The notes beneath the pieces were generated by a model, which saw nothing but the letters and a program-made list of their open reading frames with translations, ran no database searches and was not told the DNA's origin. The position numbers were made by a program, and so were the translations under genes. This document shows, piece after piece, positions 19,113 to 26,480 of a stretch of DNA of 64,000 nt. The stretch's first letter is position 1. Each line of letters opens with the position of its first letter. This DNA is from Candidatus Woesearchaeota archaeon B3_Woes (GTDB lineage: Archaea; Nanobdellota; Nanobdellia; Woesearchaeales; B3-WOES), in contig NJBG01000001.1 in the NCBI GenBank assembly GCA_005222965.1, positions 146,323 to 210,322 on the forward strand, read 5' to 3'.

Positions 19113-21506
19113 GTGAATTTGGCTAAATCAAATAAGATTATTCTATGGTTTAAAGAACTAGGCATAAAAGACGTAAAGTATGTAGGAGGTAAAAACGCAT
19201 CTCTTGGAGAGATGTATCAAAAACTAACCAAAAAAGGAGTTAATCTTCCAAACGGTTTTGCGGTTACTGCTTATTCTTATCAATACCTTATCAAATATAA
19301 TAAACTAGACAAAGAAATCAGAAAAACACTAAGAGGTTTAGATACTTCAAATATTAGAGACTTAGCTGAAAGAGGTAAACAAGTTAGAAACTTAATTTTA
19401 AATGCAGAATTTCCAGAAAAATTAACAAAAGAAATAGAAAAAGCGTATGATAAATTGTGCAAAGAGTATGGCCAAAACACAGATGTGGCTGTGCGTTCAT
19501 CAGCTACTGCAGAAGATTTACCAGATGCTTCTTTTGCAGGCCAGCAAGAGACCTATCTCAATATAAGAGGAAAAGAATCCCTGATAAAAGCATGTAAAAA
19601 ATGTTTTGCTTCTCTATTCACTAACAGAGCCATTTCTTATAGGGTAGATAAAAAATTCAACCACTTTAAAGTCAGCCTAAGTATTGGCGTTCAAAAGATG
19701 ATTAGAAGCGACAAAGCATCTAGCGGAGTAATGTTTTCAATAGATACTGATTCCGGATTTAAGGATGTAGTTTTAATAAACGCAGCATATGGCTTAGGTG
19801 AAAATGTTGTAAAAGGAACTGTTAATCCTGATTCTTATTATGTGTTTAAACCAACTTTGTTAAAAGGTTTTAAACCTATAATCGAGAAAAAAGTTGGTGA
19901 AAAAAAATTAAAAATGATTTATACAAATAATCAGAGGAATCCTACTAAAAATATAAAAACTTCTGAAAAAGAAAGAAAATCATTTGTTCTTAATCAAGAC
20001 GAGTTGTTAAAATTAGCAAACTGGGGGTGTCTAATTGAACAACACTACAAAAAAGCAATGGATATAGAATGGGCAAAAGATGGAATAACAAAAAAATTAT
20101 ACATAGTACAGGCAAGACCTGAAACAGTTCAAAGTCAAAAAAATATTAATGTTTTAGAAGATTATGAAATGATTAAAAAAGGTCCAATTATTACAATAGG
20201 ACAAAGCGTTGGTTCAAAAGTTGGTTCTGGTAAATCAAATATAATAACAAATGTAAGAGATATTAATAGATTCAAAAAGGGGGAAGTTTTAGTTACAGAA
20301 ATGACAGATCCTGATTGGGAGCCAATAATGAAGATTGCTTCTGCTATTGTCACAGAAAAAGGGGGCAGAACCTGTCATGCGGCAATTATCTCCCGTGAAT
20401 TGGGTGTTCCTTGTGTTGTTGGAACAAACAATGCTACTAAAAAAATAAAATCAAAAGAAAATATTACTGTAAGTTGTGCAGAAGGAGAAAAAGGATTTGT
20501 CTACAAAGGAATTATTCCTTTTAAAGTAAATAGAATAAATGTAAGAAAACATAAAAGACCTAAAACAAAAATAATGATGAATGTAGGAAACCCAGAACAA
20601 GCTTTTGAATTTTCTTTTATACCAAACGACGGTGTAGGATTAGCTAGAGAGGAGTTTATCATAAACGAATACATCAAAATCCATCCAAAAGCGCTTATTA
20701 ATTTTTCAAAAATCAAAGATAAAAAAACAAAACAAAAAATAGAGAGCATGACTTATGGTTACAAAAACAAAACAGAGTTTTTTGTAAATAAACTAGCCCA
20801 AGGGGTTAGTATGATTGGAGCTGCATTCTATCCAAAAGATGTTATTGTTAGATTATCTGATTTTAAATCAAACGAATATGCTAATTTAATTGGCGGAAAA
20901 GAATATGAACCAATAGAAGATAATCCAATGCTTGGTTGGAGAGGAGCTTCAAGATATTATTCTGATTATAAAGATGCTTTTGCATTAGAATGTAAAGCAA
21001 TGAAAAAGGTTCGTGAAGAATTTGGATTAAAAAATGTAAAACTAATGGTTCCTTTTTGCAGAACAGTGGAAGAAGGTAAAAAAGTTCTAGAAGAAATGAA
21101 AAAAAATGGATTAACAAGAGGAAAAGACAACCTAGAAATTTATGTAATGTGTGAAATTCCTTCAAATGTTATACTAGCAGATGAATTTTCTGAAATATTT
21201 GATGGATTTTCAATTGGTTCAAACGATCTAACACAATTAACCCTAGGTCTAGATAGAGATTCAGAACTAGTTAGCAGTATTTATGATGAAAGGAACATGG
21301 CTGTAAAAAAATTAATTGCTTTGGTAATATCTAAAGCAAAAAAGAATAATAAAAAGATAGGAATTTGCGGCCAGGCACCCTCTGATTTCCCTGAATTTGC
21401 TCAATTTCTAGTTCATTGTGGTATTGATTCTATAAGTCTAAACCCAGACACAGTTGTCAAAACAACATTAGCAATATTAAAAGAAGAAAAGAGAATTAAT
21501 TCTTAA
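19113..21506 (+). CDS. ppsA: Phosphoenolpyruvate synthase
   Basis: VGGKNASLGE, AVRSSATAEDL, GGRTCHAAI, FSIGSNDL. Confidence 0.97.
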   Translation: MNLAKSNKIILWFKELGIKDVKYVGGKNASLGEMYQKLTKKGVNLPNGFAVTAYSYQYLIKYNKLDKEIRKTLRGLDTSNIRDLAERGKQVRNLILNAEFPEKLTKEIEKAYDKLCKEYGQNTDVAVRSSATAEDLPDASFAGQQETYLNIRGKESLIKACKKCFASLFTNRAISYRVDKKFNHFKVSLSIGVQKMIRSDKASSGVMFSIDTDSGFKDVVLINAAYGLGENVVKGTVNPDSYYVFKPTLLKGFKPIIEKKVGEKKLKMIYTNNQRNPTKNIKTSEKERKSFVLNQDELLKLANWGCLIEQHYKKAMDIEWAKDGITKKLYIVQARPETVQSQKNINVLEDYEMIKKGPIITIGQSVGSKVGSGKSNIITNVRDINRFKKGEVLVTEMTDPDWEPIMKIASAIVTEKGGRTCHAAIISRELGVPCVVGTNNATKKIKSKENITVSCAEGEKGFVYKGIIPFKVNRINVRKHKRPKTKIMMNVGNPEQAFEFSFIPNDGVGLAREEFIINEYIKIHPKALINFSKIKDKKTKQKIESMTYGYKNKTEFFVNKLAQGVSMIGAAFYPKDVIVRLSDFKSNEYANLIGGKEYEPIEDNPMLGWRGASRYYSDYKDAFALECKAMKKVREEFGLKNVKLMVPFCRTVEEGKKVLEEMKKNGLTRGKDNLEIYVMCEIPSNVILADEFSEIFDGFSIGSNDLTQLTLGLDRDSELVSSIYDERNMAVKKLIALVISKAKKNNKKIGICGQAPSDFPEFAQFLVHCGIDSISLNPDTVVKTTLAILKEEKRINS

Positions 21507-22194
21507 TTAAAACTTCTTTAAAAAAACCATCAACACTTTTTTTCATATCATCAATTTCTTTTTGTTTGTATGAAGTTATATTCTTAAATCTATTTTCTAT
21601 CATATCTCTATTTGATCTAAAATTCTGTAAAATATATTTTTTAGAACCCTTTAGCAATTTTCCTATCTTCAAAATATTCTCTTTTGTTATCAACCCAGGA
21701 ACAACAGTAGTTCTAAACTCATAGTCAATCTCGGATTTTTGGATTAGTTTGATTGATTTTTTTATTTGATTAATATCAACATTAACACCAACAACATTTT
21801 CATAATCCTCTAAACTTGTCTTAACATCCATTGCAATATAATCTAATAATTTATTATCAATCAATCTCTTAATCATAGCAGGATTATAACCATCTGTATC
21901 TAGTTTAACTAAAAATTCTTTTTCTTTGATTTGAGAAATAAAAGAAGGCAAATCTGTATAAAGAGTAGGCTCCCCACCAGTTATACAAACACCATCAAGC
22001 CATTTTTTTCTTTTTTCTAGAAAAGATAATACTTCATCTTCTTTTATTGTTTTAAGATCTTTAGAATGAAGAACTAAATCTGGATTATGGCAAAATCCAC
22101 ATCTAAAATTGCACCCGCCTACAAAAATTGTAGCAACACCATAAGGCTCAAAATCTATCAAAGACATTTTTTGAAGCCCTTTTATGAGGACCAT
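21496..22194 (-). CDS. nrdG: Anaerobic RNR activating enzyme (radical SAM)
   Basis: GCNFRCGFCHNP, ITGGEP, EFRTT; downstream of nrdD. Confidence 0.93.
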   Translation of the reverse strand: MVLIKGLQKMSLIDFEPYGVATIFVGGCNFRCGFCHNPDLVLHSKDLKTIKEDEVLSFLEKRKKWLDGVCITGGEPTLYTDLPSFISQIKEKEFLVKLDTDGYNPAMIKRLIDNKLLDYIAMDVKTSLEDYENVVGVNVDINQIKKSIKLIQKSEIDYEFRTTVVPGLITKENILKIGKLLKGSKKYILQNFRSNRDMIENRFKNITSYKQKEIDDMKKSVDGFFKEVLIKN

Positions 22195-22195
22195 C

Positions 22196-22441
22196 TTAGA
22201 CCAAACTCTTGTTTTCAATTACCCTTTTTATTTCGTCAATAGAGCGTGCTTCACTCTTAAACTCTTCGCCTTCAAAAAAAAGAACAGTAGGCACAGAATT
22301 TATATTAAATTTTTGTGCTTGTTCTAATCCTTCAGGTTGTGAAGCATCAATCTCTTCTCCTTCCATGTCAACGTTTTTCATAAATTCCTTTACAGTTGGG
22401 CAGTTTGGGCACATTGGTGTAAAAAACAATTTATATTTCAT
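22196..22441 (-). CDS. Thioredoxin/glutaredoxin-like protein
   Basis: CPNC active site and SVPT cis-Pro motif; sits between nrdD and nrdG. Confidence 0.88.
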   Translation of the reverse strand: MKYKLFFTPMCPNCPTVKEFMKNVDMEGEEIDASQPEGLEQAQKFNINSVPTVLFFEGEEFKSEARSIDEIKRVIENKSLV

Positions 22442-22442
22442 C

Positions 22443-24710
22443 TTAATCTGGATTTTTAATCTTTAAAACAGGTTCAATTTTACTCTTAAAATCTGAATCA
22501 AGGCTTTTTTGTTCACAATACTCTTCTCTAAATTTGAATTCTTCTGCTTTGCCTCTGTTCCATTGTTTTATTGGTCTGAAATAACCAACAATCCTGCTAT
22601 AAACCTCATTTTCGCCTCCACACTCTTTACACTCGTAAACCTCTCCTTTAGTATAACCATGTTTAGAGCATATCGAAAAGGTAGGTGTTATTGTAAAGTA
22701 AGGTAGTTTTGTATTATATGCAATTTTTTTGACTAATCTTTTGCATGATTCTCCACTGTTCATCTTTTCTCCTAAAAATGTATGGAAAATTGTACCTCCA
22801 GTGTATAGTGACTGTATTTTGTCTTGATGTTCTACTGCTTCAATTGCATCATCTGTATGATCAACAGATAATTGTGTTGAATTAGTCAAGAAAGGTTCAT
22901 CCTTTCCAGAAGTTATAATCTTATCACCATATAGTTCTTTGTCGAGCCTTGCAAATCTATAAGCTGTACTTTCAGCAGGTGTTGCTTCTAAATTATACAA
23001 ATTTTTTGTTTCGTTCTGGAATTCTTTTAATTTACCCCTCATAAAGTTCATTACTTCAATTGTAAAGTTTACTCCTTCTTCACTTTCAATACCTTTACCT
23101 ACGAAGTTTAAACAACATTCATGCATTCCACATATACCAATCGTGCTAAAATGATTGTCAAATGTTCCAAGGTATCTTTTTGTGAAAGGCATTAAACCAT
23201 TTTCTAAGTTTTTATCAACAACCTTTCTTTTTGTTTCTAAGCTGATCTTTCCTAATTCCATATAATGACTTAATTTGTCAAAGAACTCTTCTTTGGTTTT
23301 GTTCTCATAACCAAGTCTGTTCATATTTATTGTTACAACGCCAATTGAACCTGTTGAATCTCCTGGACCCCACATTCCTCCTGGCCTATTCATTAGCTCA
23401 TTTTGATCCAGATTTAATCTGCAGCACATTGCTCTTATAGACTTAGGATCTAGGTTGCTTCCAATATAGTTTTGGAAATATGGTGTACCATACTTTGCAG
23501 TTAAATCAAACAATAAATTTGATGTTTGATCATTCCAATCAAAATCTTTTGTTAGATTATATGTTGGTATTGGGAATGTAAATATTCTGCCGTTTGCATC
23601 TCCCTCTAACATTACCTCAATAAATGCCTTATTGATCATATCCATCTCTTTTTGACAGTCTCCATAAGTAAAGTCCTGTTCAACTCCTCCAACAATAGCT
23701 TTATCATTTTTCAGATCTTCAGGAGCCTTCCAATCAAAGGTTAGGTTTGAAAAAGGATATTGAGATCCCCATCTAGATGGTATATTCAAACTAAATACTA
23801 ATTGTTGTATAGCTTGCTTTACCTGTTTATAGGTTAAATTATCAGTCTTAATAAAAGGAGCTAATAGAGTGTCAACAGATGAAAAAGCCTGAGCACCTGC
23901 AAACTCCATTTGTAGACATCCAATAAAATTAACCATTTGATGTACAACAGTACTCATGTGCTTTGCTGGTTTACAATCAACTTTATTTGCTACTCCTCCA
24001 AAACCTTTTAATAACAAGTTCTTTAAAGACCAACCAGCACAATAACCAATTACACCATGGCTTAAATCATGGATATGCATATCTCCTTTTTTATGTGCTT
24101 CTGATACCTGAAGAGAATATAATTCATTCAGATTATAATTTTTCATAACCTCTCCTGCAGTATACAATAATAATCCTGAAAAAGAATAAGATTCATTACT
24201 ATTCTCTTTTGTATCCCACTTATTCTGATCAAGATATGTACTAATTACTTTTTGAACATTAACAAAAGTAGTTTTACCATCTCTTAGTTTTTTATGTTGA
24301 TCTCTGTAAAGAATATATGATTTTGCTGTTTTTGAATGTCCTTCCTCAACCAGAACCTTCTCAACAATATCCTGAACTTCTTCTACACTAGGGATATCTT
24401 CATTGAATTTTTGTTTGACAGTTTCAATAACTTTCTTACTTAATTTTTTTGATTCATCTTTATCAGAACCACCAACACTTTTAGCAGCCTGAAAAATAGC
24501 ATTAGTTATTTTATCAGTACTAAAATCAACAACCTTTCCATTTCTTTTTCTTATTTTAGCAATAAGGTGGTCTTCTACAATTTGTTCATATGTTGTAAAT
24601 CTATTTCCGCAATCATTACACTCTCTTCTTCTTCTATTCTTTAAAGAATCTTCAGAAGATCTCTTATCAATCACTTTTAATTTCTCAGAAGAACATTTTG
24701 GACATTTCAT
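22443..24710 (-). CDS. nrdD: Class III ribonucleoside-triphosphate reductase with N-terminal NrdR-like Zn ribbon and ATP cone
   Basis: HIHDL, YCAGW, AMCCRL, EATPAES, glycyl-radical RIVGY; N-terminus MKCPKC...VIDKR...RRRRECNDC..RFTTYE. Confidence 0.95.
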   Translation of the reverse strand: MKCPKCSSEKLKVIDKRSSEDSLKNRRRRECNDCGNRFTTYEQIVEDHLIAKIRKRNGKVVDFSTDKITNAIFQAAKSVGGSDKDESKKLSKKVIETVKQKFNEDIPSVEEVQDIVEKVLVEEGHSKTAKSYILYRDQHKKLRDGKTTFVNVQKVISTYLDQNKWDTKENSNESYSFSGLLLYTAGEVMKNYNLNELYSLQVSEAHKKGDMHIHDLSHGVIGYCAGWSLKNLLLKGFGGVANKVDCKPAKHMSTVVHQMVNFIGCLQMEFAGAQAFSSVDTLLAPFIKTDNLTYKQVKQAIQQLVFSLNIPSRWGSQYPFSNLTFDWKAPEDLKNDKAIVGGVEQDFTYGDCQKEMDMINKAFIEVMLEGDANGRIFTFPIPTYNLTKDFDWNDQTSNLLFDLTAKYGTPYFQNYIGSNLDPKSIRAMCCRLNLDQNELMNRPGGMWGPGDSTGSIGVVTINMNRLGYENKTKEEFFDKLSHYMELGKISLETKRKVVDKNLENGLMPFTKRYLGTFDNHFSTIGICGMHECCLNFVGKGIESEEGVNFTIEVMNFMRGKLKEFQNETKNLYNLEATPAESTAYRFARLDKELYGDKIITSGKDEPFLTNSTQLSVDHTDDAIEAVEHQDKIQSLYTGGTIFHTFLGEKMNSGESCKRLVKKIAYNTKLPYFTITPTFSICSKHGYTKGEVYECKECGGENEVYSRIVGYFRPIKQWNRGKAEEFKFREEYCEQKSLDSDFKSKIEPVLKIKNPD

Positions 24711-24830
24711 TTTATACCTCCTTAAGTGATAAGATGAAACAAAGAAATTTTAATTTCGCATGTTTCATTTTTCATTTCACCTCGTTTTCAGTATCTTTTA
24801 TCTTAACTAGAATATTTTAGTAGATGTAGC

Positions 24831-24842
24831 TTATATATAAAA
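24831..24842 (-). promoter_or_regulatory. Putative TATA box of the nrdD operon
   Basis: TTTTATATATAA preceded by purine-rich CAAAG (BRE-like). Confidence 0.55.
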
Positions 24843-24864
24843 CTTTGTAACAACTGTCTGATAA

Positions 24865-24911
24865 ACACAAGATATTGTAGTCTTTTTTATGAAAAACACA
24901 ATATATTGTGG
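24865..24911. promoter_or_regulatory. Tandem NrdR boxes
   Basis: ACACAAGATATTGTAG (24865-24880) and ACACAATATATTGTGG (24896-24911) match the consensus acaCwAtATaTwGtgt and start 31 bp apart. Confidence 0.85.
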
Positions 24912-25124
24912 TACACAATTTATATTAAAAACTAGAAAAAGCCATATTTACTAAAATAAAGCCCATATTTAAAGATTTAGCAATTCAAAAATCGATTATA
25001 AAAAACATATAATTAACAATTATTTTCAATATTGTAAATATAAAAAGTTTAATATATTTTGTAACTACTTAATAGTTATTAAAAAATAGAAACATTTAAA
25101 TATGATAATGACGATGCTGTTTCT

Positions 25125-26480
25125 ATGAATGCTGTACTAAATCCAGTAGATTTGAATATTGCACTACATAGAGCACTAGGTAGTGTTTTTACTAGTAGCG
25201 ATTACATCATTCGTACATTTGAAGATATCTTAAAAAGTTATCCATTAAAAAGAATTGAATCCATGAAACAAGGAGAACTAGAAAAGGTTCTTTATAGGCT
25301 TTCTCAAAGAAAAGGTGTGCAAGAAATGCAGGAAAGCATTAATACAGATATTCAACATGGACAGGAAAAAATTGATTCAGCTGTATATGGAATAATTCTA
25401 CAAAACCTAGAAAACGCAGGAATTATATCCAAAGATGAATTAAGTAGTGTTAATGATTTTTGTGATCAGGAAATTGTAGCTTATTCATGTCCAACCAGCC
25501 AGGATCCTAACAAAGTATTGGCAAGAGGACAATTTCCTCTAGAAATGAGTTTAGATGAAGCAAGATTTACACCAAATAATGTTTTTTATAGTGGTGAAGG
25601 CCTAGAATGGAAAATAAGACCTGGAGAAAAACCAAATTTGATTCTTGAGGAAGGTGCTATGTTAAAAGAAGGTGGAAGATTTTTTGTTTTTGAAGAACAA
25701 GCAACTACTAAAAGATCTCATCAAATAGTTAGAGAAATTACTCAATACCTGGTAGATCATTACCCTGCAAAAGAAGGTTTAAAAAATAATTACCCAAGCA
25801 TACAAAAAAAATTAGTTCGTGCATTAAGACCTATGTTTCCTTCTGTAGAGGATGAAGAAGGAAGAATAAACCATCAAAAACTAGTTAAAATATTTAGACA
25901 AGCGAAAAGAAGAAATATTGATTTAAATGATTATGTTAAACAAGGAGATAGAATACTTACAGAAACATTGATGAAGAGTATAGAAGAAATTGTTCCAGCA
26001 CCATATTCTGCTGTAAAAACAAGGGTTAAATCAAGAGAAACAGCTTTTCATAAAATTATAGAATCTATTTATGATCTAAGAAGCGATGGACATAAAGGTG
26101 GCGCAAAAGAATTTAAAGATTTGTATGGTATTAGGATCATACTTCCAACAATAGATGATATCTTTGTATATGTTAATCAGCTTAAAAGATCAGCAGGCGT
26201 AGAAGTCGTTACAGATAGAGAAGGAAACTCACTAGAAAAAGATCATGTTACATTTCCTAAACCAAACAAATATCAATCTTACCATCTACCAATAAAGTTT
26301 GCAGGTACACTTTATGATATACAAATAAGAACTCATGAAATGGATGAAAAAGCAGAAAGAGATATTCAACAAGCGCACCATGTTTACAAAAACATTAAAA
26401 AAGATCCACTTGATTCTACTTCCCTAAACGTAAGAAAAGTAATTAGTACTTGTTTAGGATTGCCTCTTCCTTGTGAATAA
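25125..26480 (+). CDS. RelA/SpoT-type nucleotidyltransferase domain protein
   Basis: C-terminal RVKS...K, DLYGIRII, KDH...PKPNKYQSYH, DIQIRT..M...AE. Confidence 0.8.
   Translation: MNAVLNPVDLNIALHRALGSVFTSSDYIIRTFEDILKSYPLKRIESMKQGELEKVLYRLSQRKGVQEMQESINTDIQHGQEKIDSAVYGIILQNLENAGIISKDELSSVNDFCDQEIVAYSCPTSQDPNKVLARGQFPLEMSLDEARFTPNNVFYSGEGLEWKIRPGEKPNLILEEGAMLKEGGRFFVFEEQATTKRSHQIVREITQYLVDHYPAKEGLKNNYPSIQKKLVRALRPMFPSVEDEEGRINHQKLVKIFRQAKRRNIDLNDYVKQGDRILTETLMKSIEEIVPAPYSAVKTRVKSRETAFHKIIESIYDLRSDGHKGGAKEFKDLYGIRIILPTIDDIFVYVNQLKRSAGVEVVTDREGNSLEKDHVTFPKPNKYQSYHLPIKFAGTLYDIQIRTHEMDEKAERDIQQAHHVYKNIKKDPLDSTSLNVRKVISTCLGLPLPCE

Follow-up and report, generated by a model that had tools for sequence, protein, structure and literature searches.

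The window analyzed here is the whole 64,000-nucleotide (nt) stretch of contig NJBG01000001.1 from Candidatus Woesearchaeota archaeon B3_Woes (GenBank assembly GCA_005222965.1). At positions 22443..24710 of its minus strand, nrdD forms a single uninterrupted open reading frame (ORF) of 755 aa, beginning MKCPKCSSEKLKVIDKR...RRRRECNDCGNRFTTYE, in which an NrdR-type zinc ribbon and an ATP cone run in frame into a class III ribonucleotide reductase (RNR). The 768-codon open frame around this fusion gene contains zero stops, and the gene heads an operon of the order nrdD-grx-nrdG, all in one direction. The coding features are listed below; the model confidence measure is the predicted local distance difference test (pLDDT) of AlphaFold2 (AF2).

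22443..24710, minus strand: nrdD fusion gene, Zn ribbon plus ATP cone plus class III RNR (ORF, Pfam, NCBIfam)
24716..24723, minus strand: Shine-Dalgarno sequence (SD) AAGGAGGT, 5 nt before the fusion-gene ATG
24585..24710, minus strand: NrdR-type Zn ribbon, aa 1-42 (PF22811, 59.8 bits against a cut-off of 27.2)
24558..24584, minus strand: hinge between ribbon and cone, aa 43-51 (AF2 pLDDT <50 at residues 43-48)
24288..24557, minus strand: single RNR-type ATP cone, aa 52-141 (PF03477, 84.2 bits)
22518..24206, minus strand: NRDD catalytic domain, aa 169-731, including the C-terminal SRIVGYFRP (PF13597, 621.2 bits)
22196..22441, minus strand: glutaredoxin/thioredoxin-like gene, 81 aa, operon position 2 (PF00462, 26 bits)
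21496..22218, minus strand: nrdG-like radical-SAM activase, operon position 3 (PF04055, 78.5 bits; PF13353)

Domains of the fusion protein

The initial annotation had described an N terminus with the NrdR pattern, in frame with an intact class III RNR, and the profile searches agree: within the one ORF, hidden Markov models (HMMs) matched the NrdR ribbon (59.8 bits), the ATP cone and NRDD (621.2 bits). The NrdD equivalog PRK08270 (NCBIfam) scored 1036 bits over residues 51-732 against a cut-off of 548, and TIGR02487 (NrdD) scored 544.5 bits against 326.35. SRIVGYFRP is presumably the C-terminal glycyl-radical motif, and in a 33-sequence alignment of the short fusions defined below, R706, V708, G709 and Y710 at the C terminus were invariant, as were K55, R56 and G58 of the cone. 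We infer that the fusion gene encodes a working class III RNR.

The likeness to NrdR had been drawn over the first ∼140 aa; it was borne out for the ribbon part (PF22811) and failed for the cone part, which is of the RNR type. The NrdR equivalog TIGR00244 scored 62.9 bits, under its cut-off of 124.65, so that neither an NrdR-type cone nor a full-length NrdR was recognized. Because PRK08270 starts at residue 51, the cone belongs to the enzyme model, and the best solved relatives of the cone in a PDB search were RNR cones (5OLK, E 1.1e-11; 5IM3; 8P23). On the basis of the low TIGR00244 score, and because residues 50-745 match a two-cone fusion from its second cone through its core (see below), sequence comparison assigns the single cone to the RNR and not to NrdR. 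Since NrdR's own cone has been lost and the ribbon sits straight on the enzyme's allosteric cone, one cone would have to do both jobs. An AF2 model built from a 33-row alignment (mean pLDDT 81.3) predicts a three-stranded ribbon, for which block-mean pLDDT values are 69-85, and shows another confidence dip near residues 141-150. A predicted complex of two copies of residues 1-150 with Zn scored 0.31 against a mark of 0.42 and was used neither way.

The ribbon carries the residues with which NrdR touches DNA. In S. coelicolor NrdR, R12, R26-29 and R37 are described as touching the DNA backbone and D15 and R17 as reaching the bases, and mutating D15 and R17 impairs binding (PMC9110341). When the window protein was aligned to S. 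coelicolor NrdR (7P37, E 4.1e-10), K12, D15, R17, R26-29 and R37 were present, which shows, at the level of the alignment, that every residue reported for DNA contact is kept, R12 as K12. All four zinc cysteines are present in two CxxC motifs (C3, C6, C31 and C34). The D-x-R, RRRR, second CxxC and R37 were found in 46/46 short-type clusters among the matches listed in the family search below, and the apparent exceptions in the first CxxC were N-terminal truncations or a shorter loop escaping the search pattern. Across 33 short forms, 20 of the 42 ribbon positions were invariant vs. 16 of 90 in the cone.

The window genome (1,021,708 bp, 4 contigs, 30% G+C, estimated completeness 96.2%) is archaeal, since it encodes the TATA-binding protein (TBP). 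It has a single PF22811 match over the cut-off, which is the fusion, as well as a single ATP cone and a single NRDD, and no barrel of RNR class I/II turned up in a profile search of this 96.2% complete genome, leaving the fusion as the one RNR and the one NrdR-like protein detected there. A search for a separate nrdR likewise found no stand-alone NrdR in the window genome or in nine other published genomes with a short fusion, the fusion being the sole PF22811 match in 10/10 (the window genome and 9/9 others).

The fusion family and its relatives

In a family search with residues 1-150 among proteins of 415-1322 aa, for which the best 120 of 489 matches were listed, ranks 1-76 were ribbon-bearing fusions, in which the partner was NRDD (73) or a class I/II barrel (3). 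Among these matches, 46 of the 73 NRDD fusions were of a short type, with one cone and the core starting before residue 200, and 27 were of a long type, with the core at residues 258-279. Two ATP-cone stretches were found by Pfam in all 6 long proteins scanned and in the long fusions of loci L036 and L037. Window residues 1-48 align with residues 1-48 of the 861-aa long protein P0069 (locus L034), and residues 50-745 align with its residues 159-854 (68% identity, 697 residues compared). Because this alignment skips the stretch between them, the short form equals the long form minus ∼110 residues, comprising the NrdR cone and linker.

Separate genes were also common among the relatives. In neighboring NrdD loci of the same order, 12/12 ribbon-bearing genes found were stand-alone nrdR genes of 148-157 aa, and of 11 loci from a motif search, 9 had nrdR no more than 700 nt upstream of nrdD, and one more was a long fusion. 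To judge by domain order, the relatives form a series from nrdR-nrdD operons through two-cone long fusions to the one-cone short form. The window protein probably arose from an nrdR-nrdD operon by way of a two-cone fusion, followed by deletion of the ∼110 residues of NrdR cone and linker. A FastTree phylogeny of the NrdD core (91 rows, with sampling biased to ribbon-bearing proteins and 14 truncated or intein-bearing rows left out) placed the window protein among 28 short forms that make up a clade (support 99), beside 15 long forms (98), inside a 46-row clade (99). Other short forms stood elsewhere in the tree, and the label "short" needs at least five changes on the starred branches.

All nine organism-named fusion clusters listed, and three new named loci, were from Woesearchaeota, Nanoarchaeota/Nanoarchaeia or Nanobdellota. 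A scan of genome contigs with the first 170 aa returned 80 loci, among them three new short fusions (L090, L091 and L093), one duplicate (L092, of L043) and 76 cone-only loci. Of 401 sampled genomes from the order, 13 had a short fusion at full coverage of residues 1-170, spread over six family codes; three of the 13 (G321, G449 and G577) were flagged as unpublished. At the level of the phylum, again with 401 genomes sampled, a ribbon match over the cut-off was present in 317, mostly in open frames of ∼145-200 aa that represent stand-alone NrdR. This frequency in a DPANN phylum contrasts with the description of NrdR as "rare in archaea" (PMC9110341, PMC12176259) or, in a newer report, as present in 22% of archaeal genomes (PMC13584703). 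A census that counted stand-alone NrdR alone would presumably miss fused forms.

Several relatives depart from the two common types. P0071 (717 aa, counted as short) appears by eye to have kept the NrdR-type cone, with the core from residue 178, which would be the opposite cone loss. The protein at L036:2369-4693 (775 aa) carries two stretches of cone and matches NRDD more weakly (194 bits), and its gene has no upstream box pair; the GC-rich, structured-looking leader (L036:2050-2368) matched no Rfam family at the gathering score. In seven proteins of 960-1130 aa (P0023, P0029, P0036, P0040, P0041, P0044 and P0047), the NrdD core is split in two pieces, and for P0029, P0036 and P0047 Pfam lists the intein/homing-endonuclease families PF14890 and PF14528. 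P0037, P0052 and P0075 carry the ribbon and a single cone on a class I/II-type RNR (PF00317 plus PF02867; Pfam for P0037 and P0052), so that the ribbon-cone module sits on two RNR classes.

With P0037 as the query, candidate class II fusions in metagenomes were rejected: the 12 loci matching from residue 1, 8 of them distinct, proved to be a separate nrdR (146-156 aa) beside a class II RNR gene. At three of these gene pairs (L215, L232 and L233), tblastn had merged two genes into one apparent match. Their upstream regions have ∼43-45% G+C, sigma-70-like TTGACA/TACAAT elements and single box-like sites, and these contigs are probably bacterial.

NrdR boxes and promoter layout

The upstream region of the fusion gene contains two 16-bp boxes with a 15-bp linker, the paired-box arrangement of NrdR, together with candidate promoter elements that include a possible B recognition element (BRE):

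24919..24929, minus strand: candidate promoter P1, TTTAATATAAA (TATA-like), 7 nt before box 1; resembles the TATA-box1-box2 order of L046, L050 and L051
24896..24911, minus strand: NrdR box 1 CCACAATATATTGTGT (consensus scan, published regular expression)
24865..24880, minus strand: NrdR box 2 CTACAATATCTTGTGT, starting 31 bp after box 1
24831..24848, minus strand: candidate promoter P2, ACAAAG (resembling a BRE) with TTTTATATATAA, lying downstream of both boxes; block common by eye to 7/7 loci of "group B"
24806..24821, minus strand: degenerate 16-bp palindrome ACTAAAATATTCTAGT at the predicted P2 start site; box-like, failing both box definitions

The two NrdR-box palindromes that had been noted from the sequence, with starts 31 bp apart, were confirmed at 24911..24896 and 24880..24865. 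The canonical NrdR arrangement is described as two 16-bp boxes with a linker of 15-16 bp (PMC13584703, PMC12176259), and both window boxes have all six positions reported as highly conserved, C4, A6, A8, T9, T11 and G13 (PMC13584703). We also scanned the whole window genome with a stricter 16-mer consensus. The matches numbered one at 1 mismatch (box 1), 4 at 2, 40 at 3 (including box 2) and 348 at 4. Box 1 is the single best match in the genome, and the window pair is its only pair (≤4 mismatches each) with starts 30-32 bp apart. The boxes had been placed ∼23-70 bp upstream of a putative TATA, which is correct: the P2 TATA at 24842-24831 begins 22 nt after box 2.

Co-occurrence of the fusion with boxes across DPANN genomes, which the initial annotation had suggested as a check, was found throughout. 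We scanned 400 nt upstream with the published box-pair regular expression (bioRxiv 10.1101/2024.05.27.596032) at 16 distinct short-fusion loci (L039-L051, L090, L091 and L093), and as controls used 20 same-order genomes without a ribbon match, 17 of which had cone-bearing RNR genes (n=19 genes). A short-spacer box pair was present at 16/16 fusion loci, or 13/13 without the three genomes flagged as unpublished, vs. 0/19 control RNR genes; one control gene has long-spacer pairs. With the strict 16-mer, pairs were found at 15/16 fusion loci (L093 fails) vs. 0/19 controls, and in all 15 the spacing was 30-32 bp. Of the loci encoding long fusions, L034 has a short-spacer pair upstream; at L037 and L038 one pair is longer by a helical turn, and a short-spacer pair lies farther upstream. 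The strict 16-mer found a pair at 6/12 nrdR-nrdD operons (≤4 mismatches) and in 1 of 28 upstream regions of ≥150 nt of stand-alone nrdR genes (≤3 mismatches). Variant boxes are visible by eye at many of the other nrdR loci, so the strict 16-mer misses some archaeal boxes.

By eye, the short-fusion loci show two layouts. At five of them (L046, L047, L050, L051 and L093) the order is TATA-box1-box2-SD-ATG, with no TATA after box 2. Archaeal repressors usually act from a position covering or following the start site, and because the boxes here would cover or follow the start site, this is a repressor layout. It also corresponds to the promoter overlap of NrdR boxes that has been published for bacteria. 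At seven loci (the window, L040, L042, L044, L045, L090 and L091), an upstream TATA-like element and the box pair are followed by a conserved block, GTTGTaACAAA..TTTTATATA. L042 and L045 have a second box pair after the second TATA, at about -61 and -33 from the ATG, giving a promoter-operator-promoter-operator tandem, and the degenerate palindrome of the window occupies the place of this second true pair. The proposal that activation as well as repression is possible is in part upheld by the downstream BRE/TATA of the window subgroup, although repression is the more economical common reading in view of the five loci with boxes after the TATA.

A fused reductase as probable regulator of its own operon

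The fused reductase most likely binds the two upstream NrdR boxes and represses its own operon, a function that appears well supported by the comparative evidence. We favor, with moderate confidence, a bifunctional enzyme-repressor that autoregulates nrdD-grx-nrdG, probably via dATP/ATP at its one cone. That this single cone gates catalysis and transcription together, with dATP-loaded cones pairing, inhibiting the enzyme and clamping the ribbons on two operators, is a more tentative proposal, which we regard as possible rather than probable. The interpretation offered at the outset, an RNR that may regulate its own operon, is supported overall: the ribbon HMM, the search for a separate nrdR and the co-occurrence of boxes each came out in its favor.

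In the proposed mechanism, ribbons of enzyme molecules would pair on each box, as in NrdR, and the two box-bound units would be bridged in a fixed three-turn geometry; because the 30-32 bp spacing is kept, the bound units are likely to touch. The bridge would be the enzyme's own ATP cone, of an RNR type whose members pair or tetramerize with dATP. Cone pairing driven by dATP would position the ribbons for cooperative binding to both boxes, such that dATP would inhibit catalysis and strengthen operator binding, with ATP doing the opposite. Because repressor and enzyme are one polypeptide, enzyme dosage would also limit expression.

NrdR is reported to place a ribbon pair on each box and to join the pairs through cone dimers, giving a tetramer with about three helical turns between its DNA sites (PMC9110341). 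In P. copri NrdD, dATP-driven cone pairing and a shift to tetramers are described (PMC11226230), and the cone type that binds two dATP includes, in a table of the same paper, the best solved relatives of the window cone.

Several observations weigh against the favored reading. S. thermophilus NrdD is reported to form cone dimers and no dATP tetramer (PMC12662201), so cone bridging is not general to class III RNRs. NrdR's own cone, described as a double sensor of ATP and dATP with a C-terminal helix bundle that holds the DNA-binding tetramer (PMC9110341), is absent from the fusion, and for this reason control, if any, must differ from that of NrdR. In the window and six related loci, the BRE/TATA that is best conserved follows the box pair, so that simple occlusion of the promoter is not evident in the window and activation is possible. 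The regular expression is loose in the AT-rich window genome, where it finds 176 pairs genome-wide (∼0.07 per 400 nt); at this rate, 16 loci should yield about one hit by chance. At L036, which encodes a two-cone fusion, the 400 nt upstream contain no box pair. The nine other published genomes are 77-97% complete, so that the absence of nrdR from them means "not found" only, and the unpublished fusion genome G321 has 2 PF22811 matches.

The promoter layouts bear directly on the idea that the ribbon binds the boxes with an outcome other than dATP-controlled repression, either activation of P2 or nucleotide-independent autoregulation by dosage. This idea draws on the conserved BRE/TATA after box 2 in the window, L040, L042, L044, L045, L090 and L091, and on the absence of NrdR's specialized ATP-plus-dATP cone. 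We consider it unlikely, because the same type of protein occurs at L046, L047, L050, L051 and L093 with the boxes between TATA and ATG, because the second box pair downstream of P2 in L042 and L045 fits repression of both promoters, and because the RNR-type cone retains its Pfam match and the invariant K55, R56 and G58; moreover, the NrdRs characterized in the sources cited here are all repressors. It is less likely again that the ribbon is a leftover or has a non-DNA role, such as oligomerization or zinc-dependent stability, and that the boxes are relics or serve a different factor. The tetramer-building cone of NrdR has indeed been lost, and the bulk of the enzyme might get in the way of a sharply bent DNA complex like that described for NrdR (PMC9110341). 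Nevertheless, the ribbon is the most conserved N-terminal part of the protein (20/42 positions invariant, including every reported DNA-contact residue), box pairs at 30-32 bp occur in 16/16 loci whose intergenic DNA is otherwise unalignable by eye, the 13 sampled box-bearing loci span six family codes, 0/19 control genes without a ribbon have box pairs, and 10/10 published genomes have no other NrdR-like protein.

Two further possibilities concern whether the ribbon acts as part of the enzyme at all. The polypeptide might be cut after translation, freeing a small NrdR-like regulator made of the ribbon with or without the cone; the low-confidence AF2 hinge at 43-48 and the dip near 141-150 could be read in this way, and two-cone fusions, if cut, would give a complete NrdR. 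However, neither a protease site nor an intein was found at the junction, the inteins of some relatives lie inside the core, and a cut after the cone would strip the short-form enzyme of its allosteric domain, all of which makes cleavage improbable. An artefact of assembly or gene calling, with nrdR and nrdD truly separate, gains some plausibility from the adjacent nrdR-nrdD genes common in relatives, but we reject it and give it next to no weight. The frame is uninterrupted in 46 short and 27 long clusters from many sources among the matches listed; a stop or frameshift artefact is unlikely because the fusion recurs in 76 independently assembled clusters; the window frame is free of stops; and the short form lacks the NrdR cone, so read-through of two normal genes cannot yield it.

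The enzyme-repressor that we favor combines features of known systems. Like stand-alone NrdR (S. coelicolor 7P37/7P3F/7P3Q; E. coli 9FVR), the fusion has two CxxC motifs, D15, R17, RRRR and R37, an ATP cone joined to the ribbon by a short hinge, and two upstream 16-bp boxes with a 15-bp linker before an RNR operon. In contrast to NrdR, a stand-alone protein of 140-220 aa, its ribbon is the N terminus of the 755-aa enzyme that it should regulate, its cone is of the RNR type without NrdR's C-terminal helix-loop-helix, and its host is an archaeon with TBP-type promoters. The N-terminal cone, NRDD core, glycyl-radical C terminus and nrdG in the operon are shared with cone-bearing NrdDs (P. copri 8P23-8P39; S. 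thermophilus 9D3X), whereas ∼50 extra N-terminal residues forming the ribbon are not. The two-cone archaeal fusions (P0069 at L034) have the same ribbon, RNR cone, core and upstream box pair, but keep NrdR's own cone, so that the sensors of regulator and enzyme are separate.

BirA, PutA and NadR are bifunctional enzyme-repressors with an N-terminal DNA-binding domain. The window protein resembles them in having catalysis and predicted operator binding at its own operon in one chain, with a pathway metabolite as a would-be co-regulator; it differs in that the DNA-binding fold is a Zn ribbon, the sensor would be an allosteric ATP cone, and the regulator appears to have been captured from the enzyme's dedicated repressor. 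In the wide sense of the term it has the predicted architecture of a "trigger enzyme", with a DNA-binding and a catalytic domain in one chain and operator boxes at its own promoter.

The fusion is real and recurrent, and it is apparently undescribed; its parts are ordinary and their combination is unusual. The initial annotation knew of no description, and our literature searches of openly available full texts, one of them directed at cone-bearing class III RNRs, found none of an NrdR-RNR fusion; NrdR and RNR papers checked for mention of a fusion likewise gave nothing relevant. A full-text search found no paper joining "NrdR" and "DPANN", and PDB and literature searches found no solved or described NrdD with an N-terminal ribbon. 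In the source records such fusions are named just "ribonucleoside triphosphate reductase".

NrdR, acting on transcription, and the RNR ATP cone, acting on activity, have been studied intensively as two separate layers of dNTP control. If our reading is correct, a protein that unites these layers on a single cone would reveal whether operator binding can be driven by a cone of the RNR type, and would be a minimal model for turning nucleotide-induced cone pairing into DNA recognition. RNR would then join the few enzymes known to control their own genes, and a bacterial-type repressor module would work on archaeal promoters of the TBP/TFB (transcription factor B) type in the reduced genomes of DPANN archaea, which have few dedicated regulators. 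If the single cone does gate both functions, the cell's only dNTP-producing enzyme would be its own product-sensing repressor. The operon, two-cone and one-cone forms would record how a target enzyme absorbed its regulator and then discarded the regulator's sensor, a path that the intermediate forms in relatives make directly testable.

Another candidate element in the nrdD leader was dropped. A 17-codon upstream ORF (uORF), MKNETCEIKISLFHLIT, with its own GAGGTG and an overlapping hairpin, ATGAAACA...TGTTTCAT, lies at 24722-24775 on the minus strand; neither is conserved in the nearest relative, L040, and the fold was not significant (z = -1.57, with 14/200 shuffles equally good). Downstream of the operon, the 3′ ends of the nrdG-like ORF and a PEP synthase-like gene (19113-21506, plus strand) converge with an 11-bp overlap at 21496-21506. 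The divergent neighbor of nrdD (25125-26480, plus strand) encodes 451 aa with a C-terminal RelA_SpoT nucleotidyltransferase domain (60 bits), here in an archaeal host, preceded by an N-terminal 300 aa without a family.

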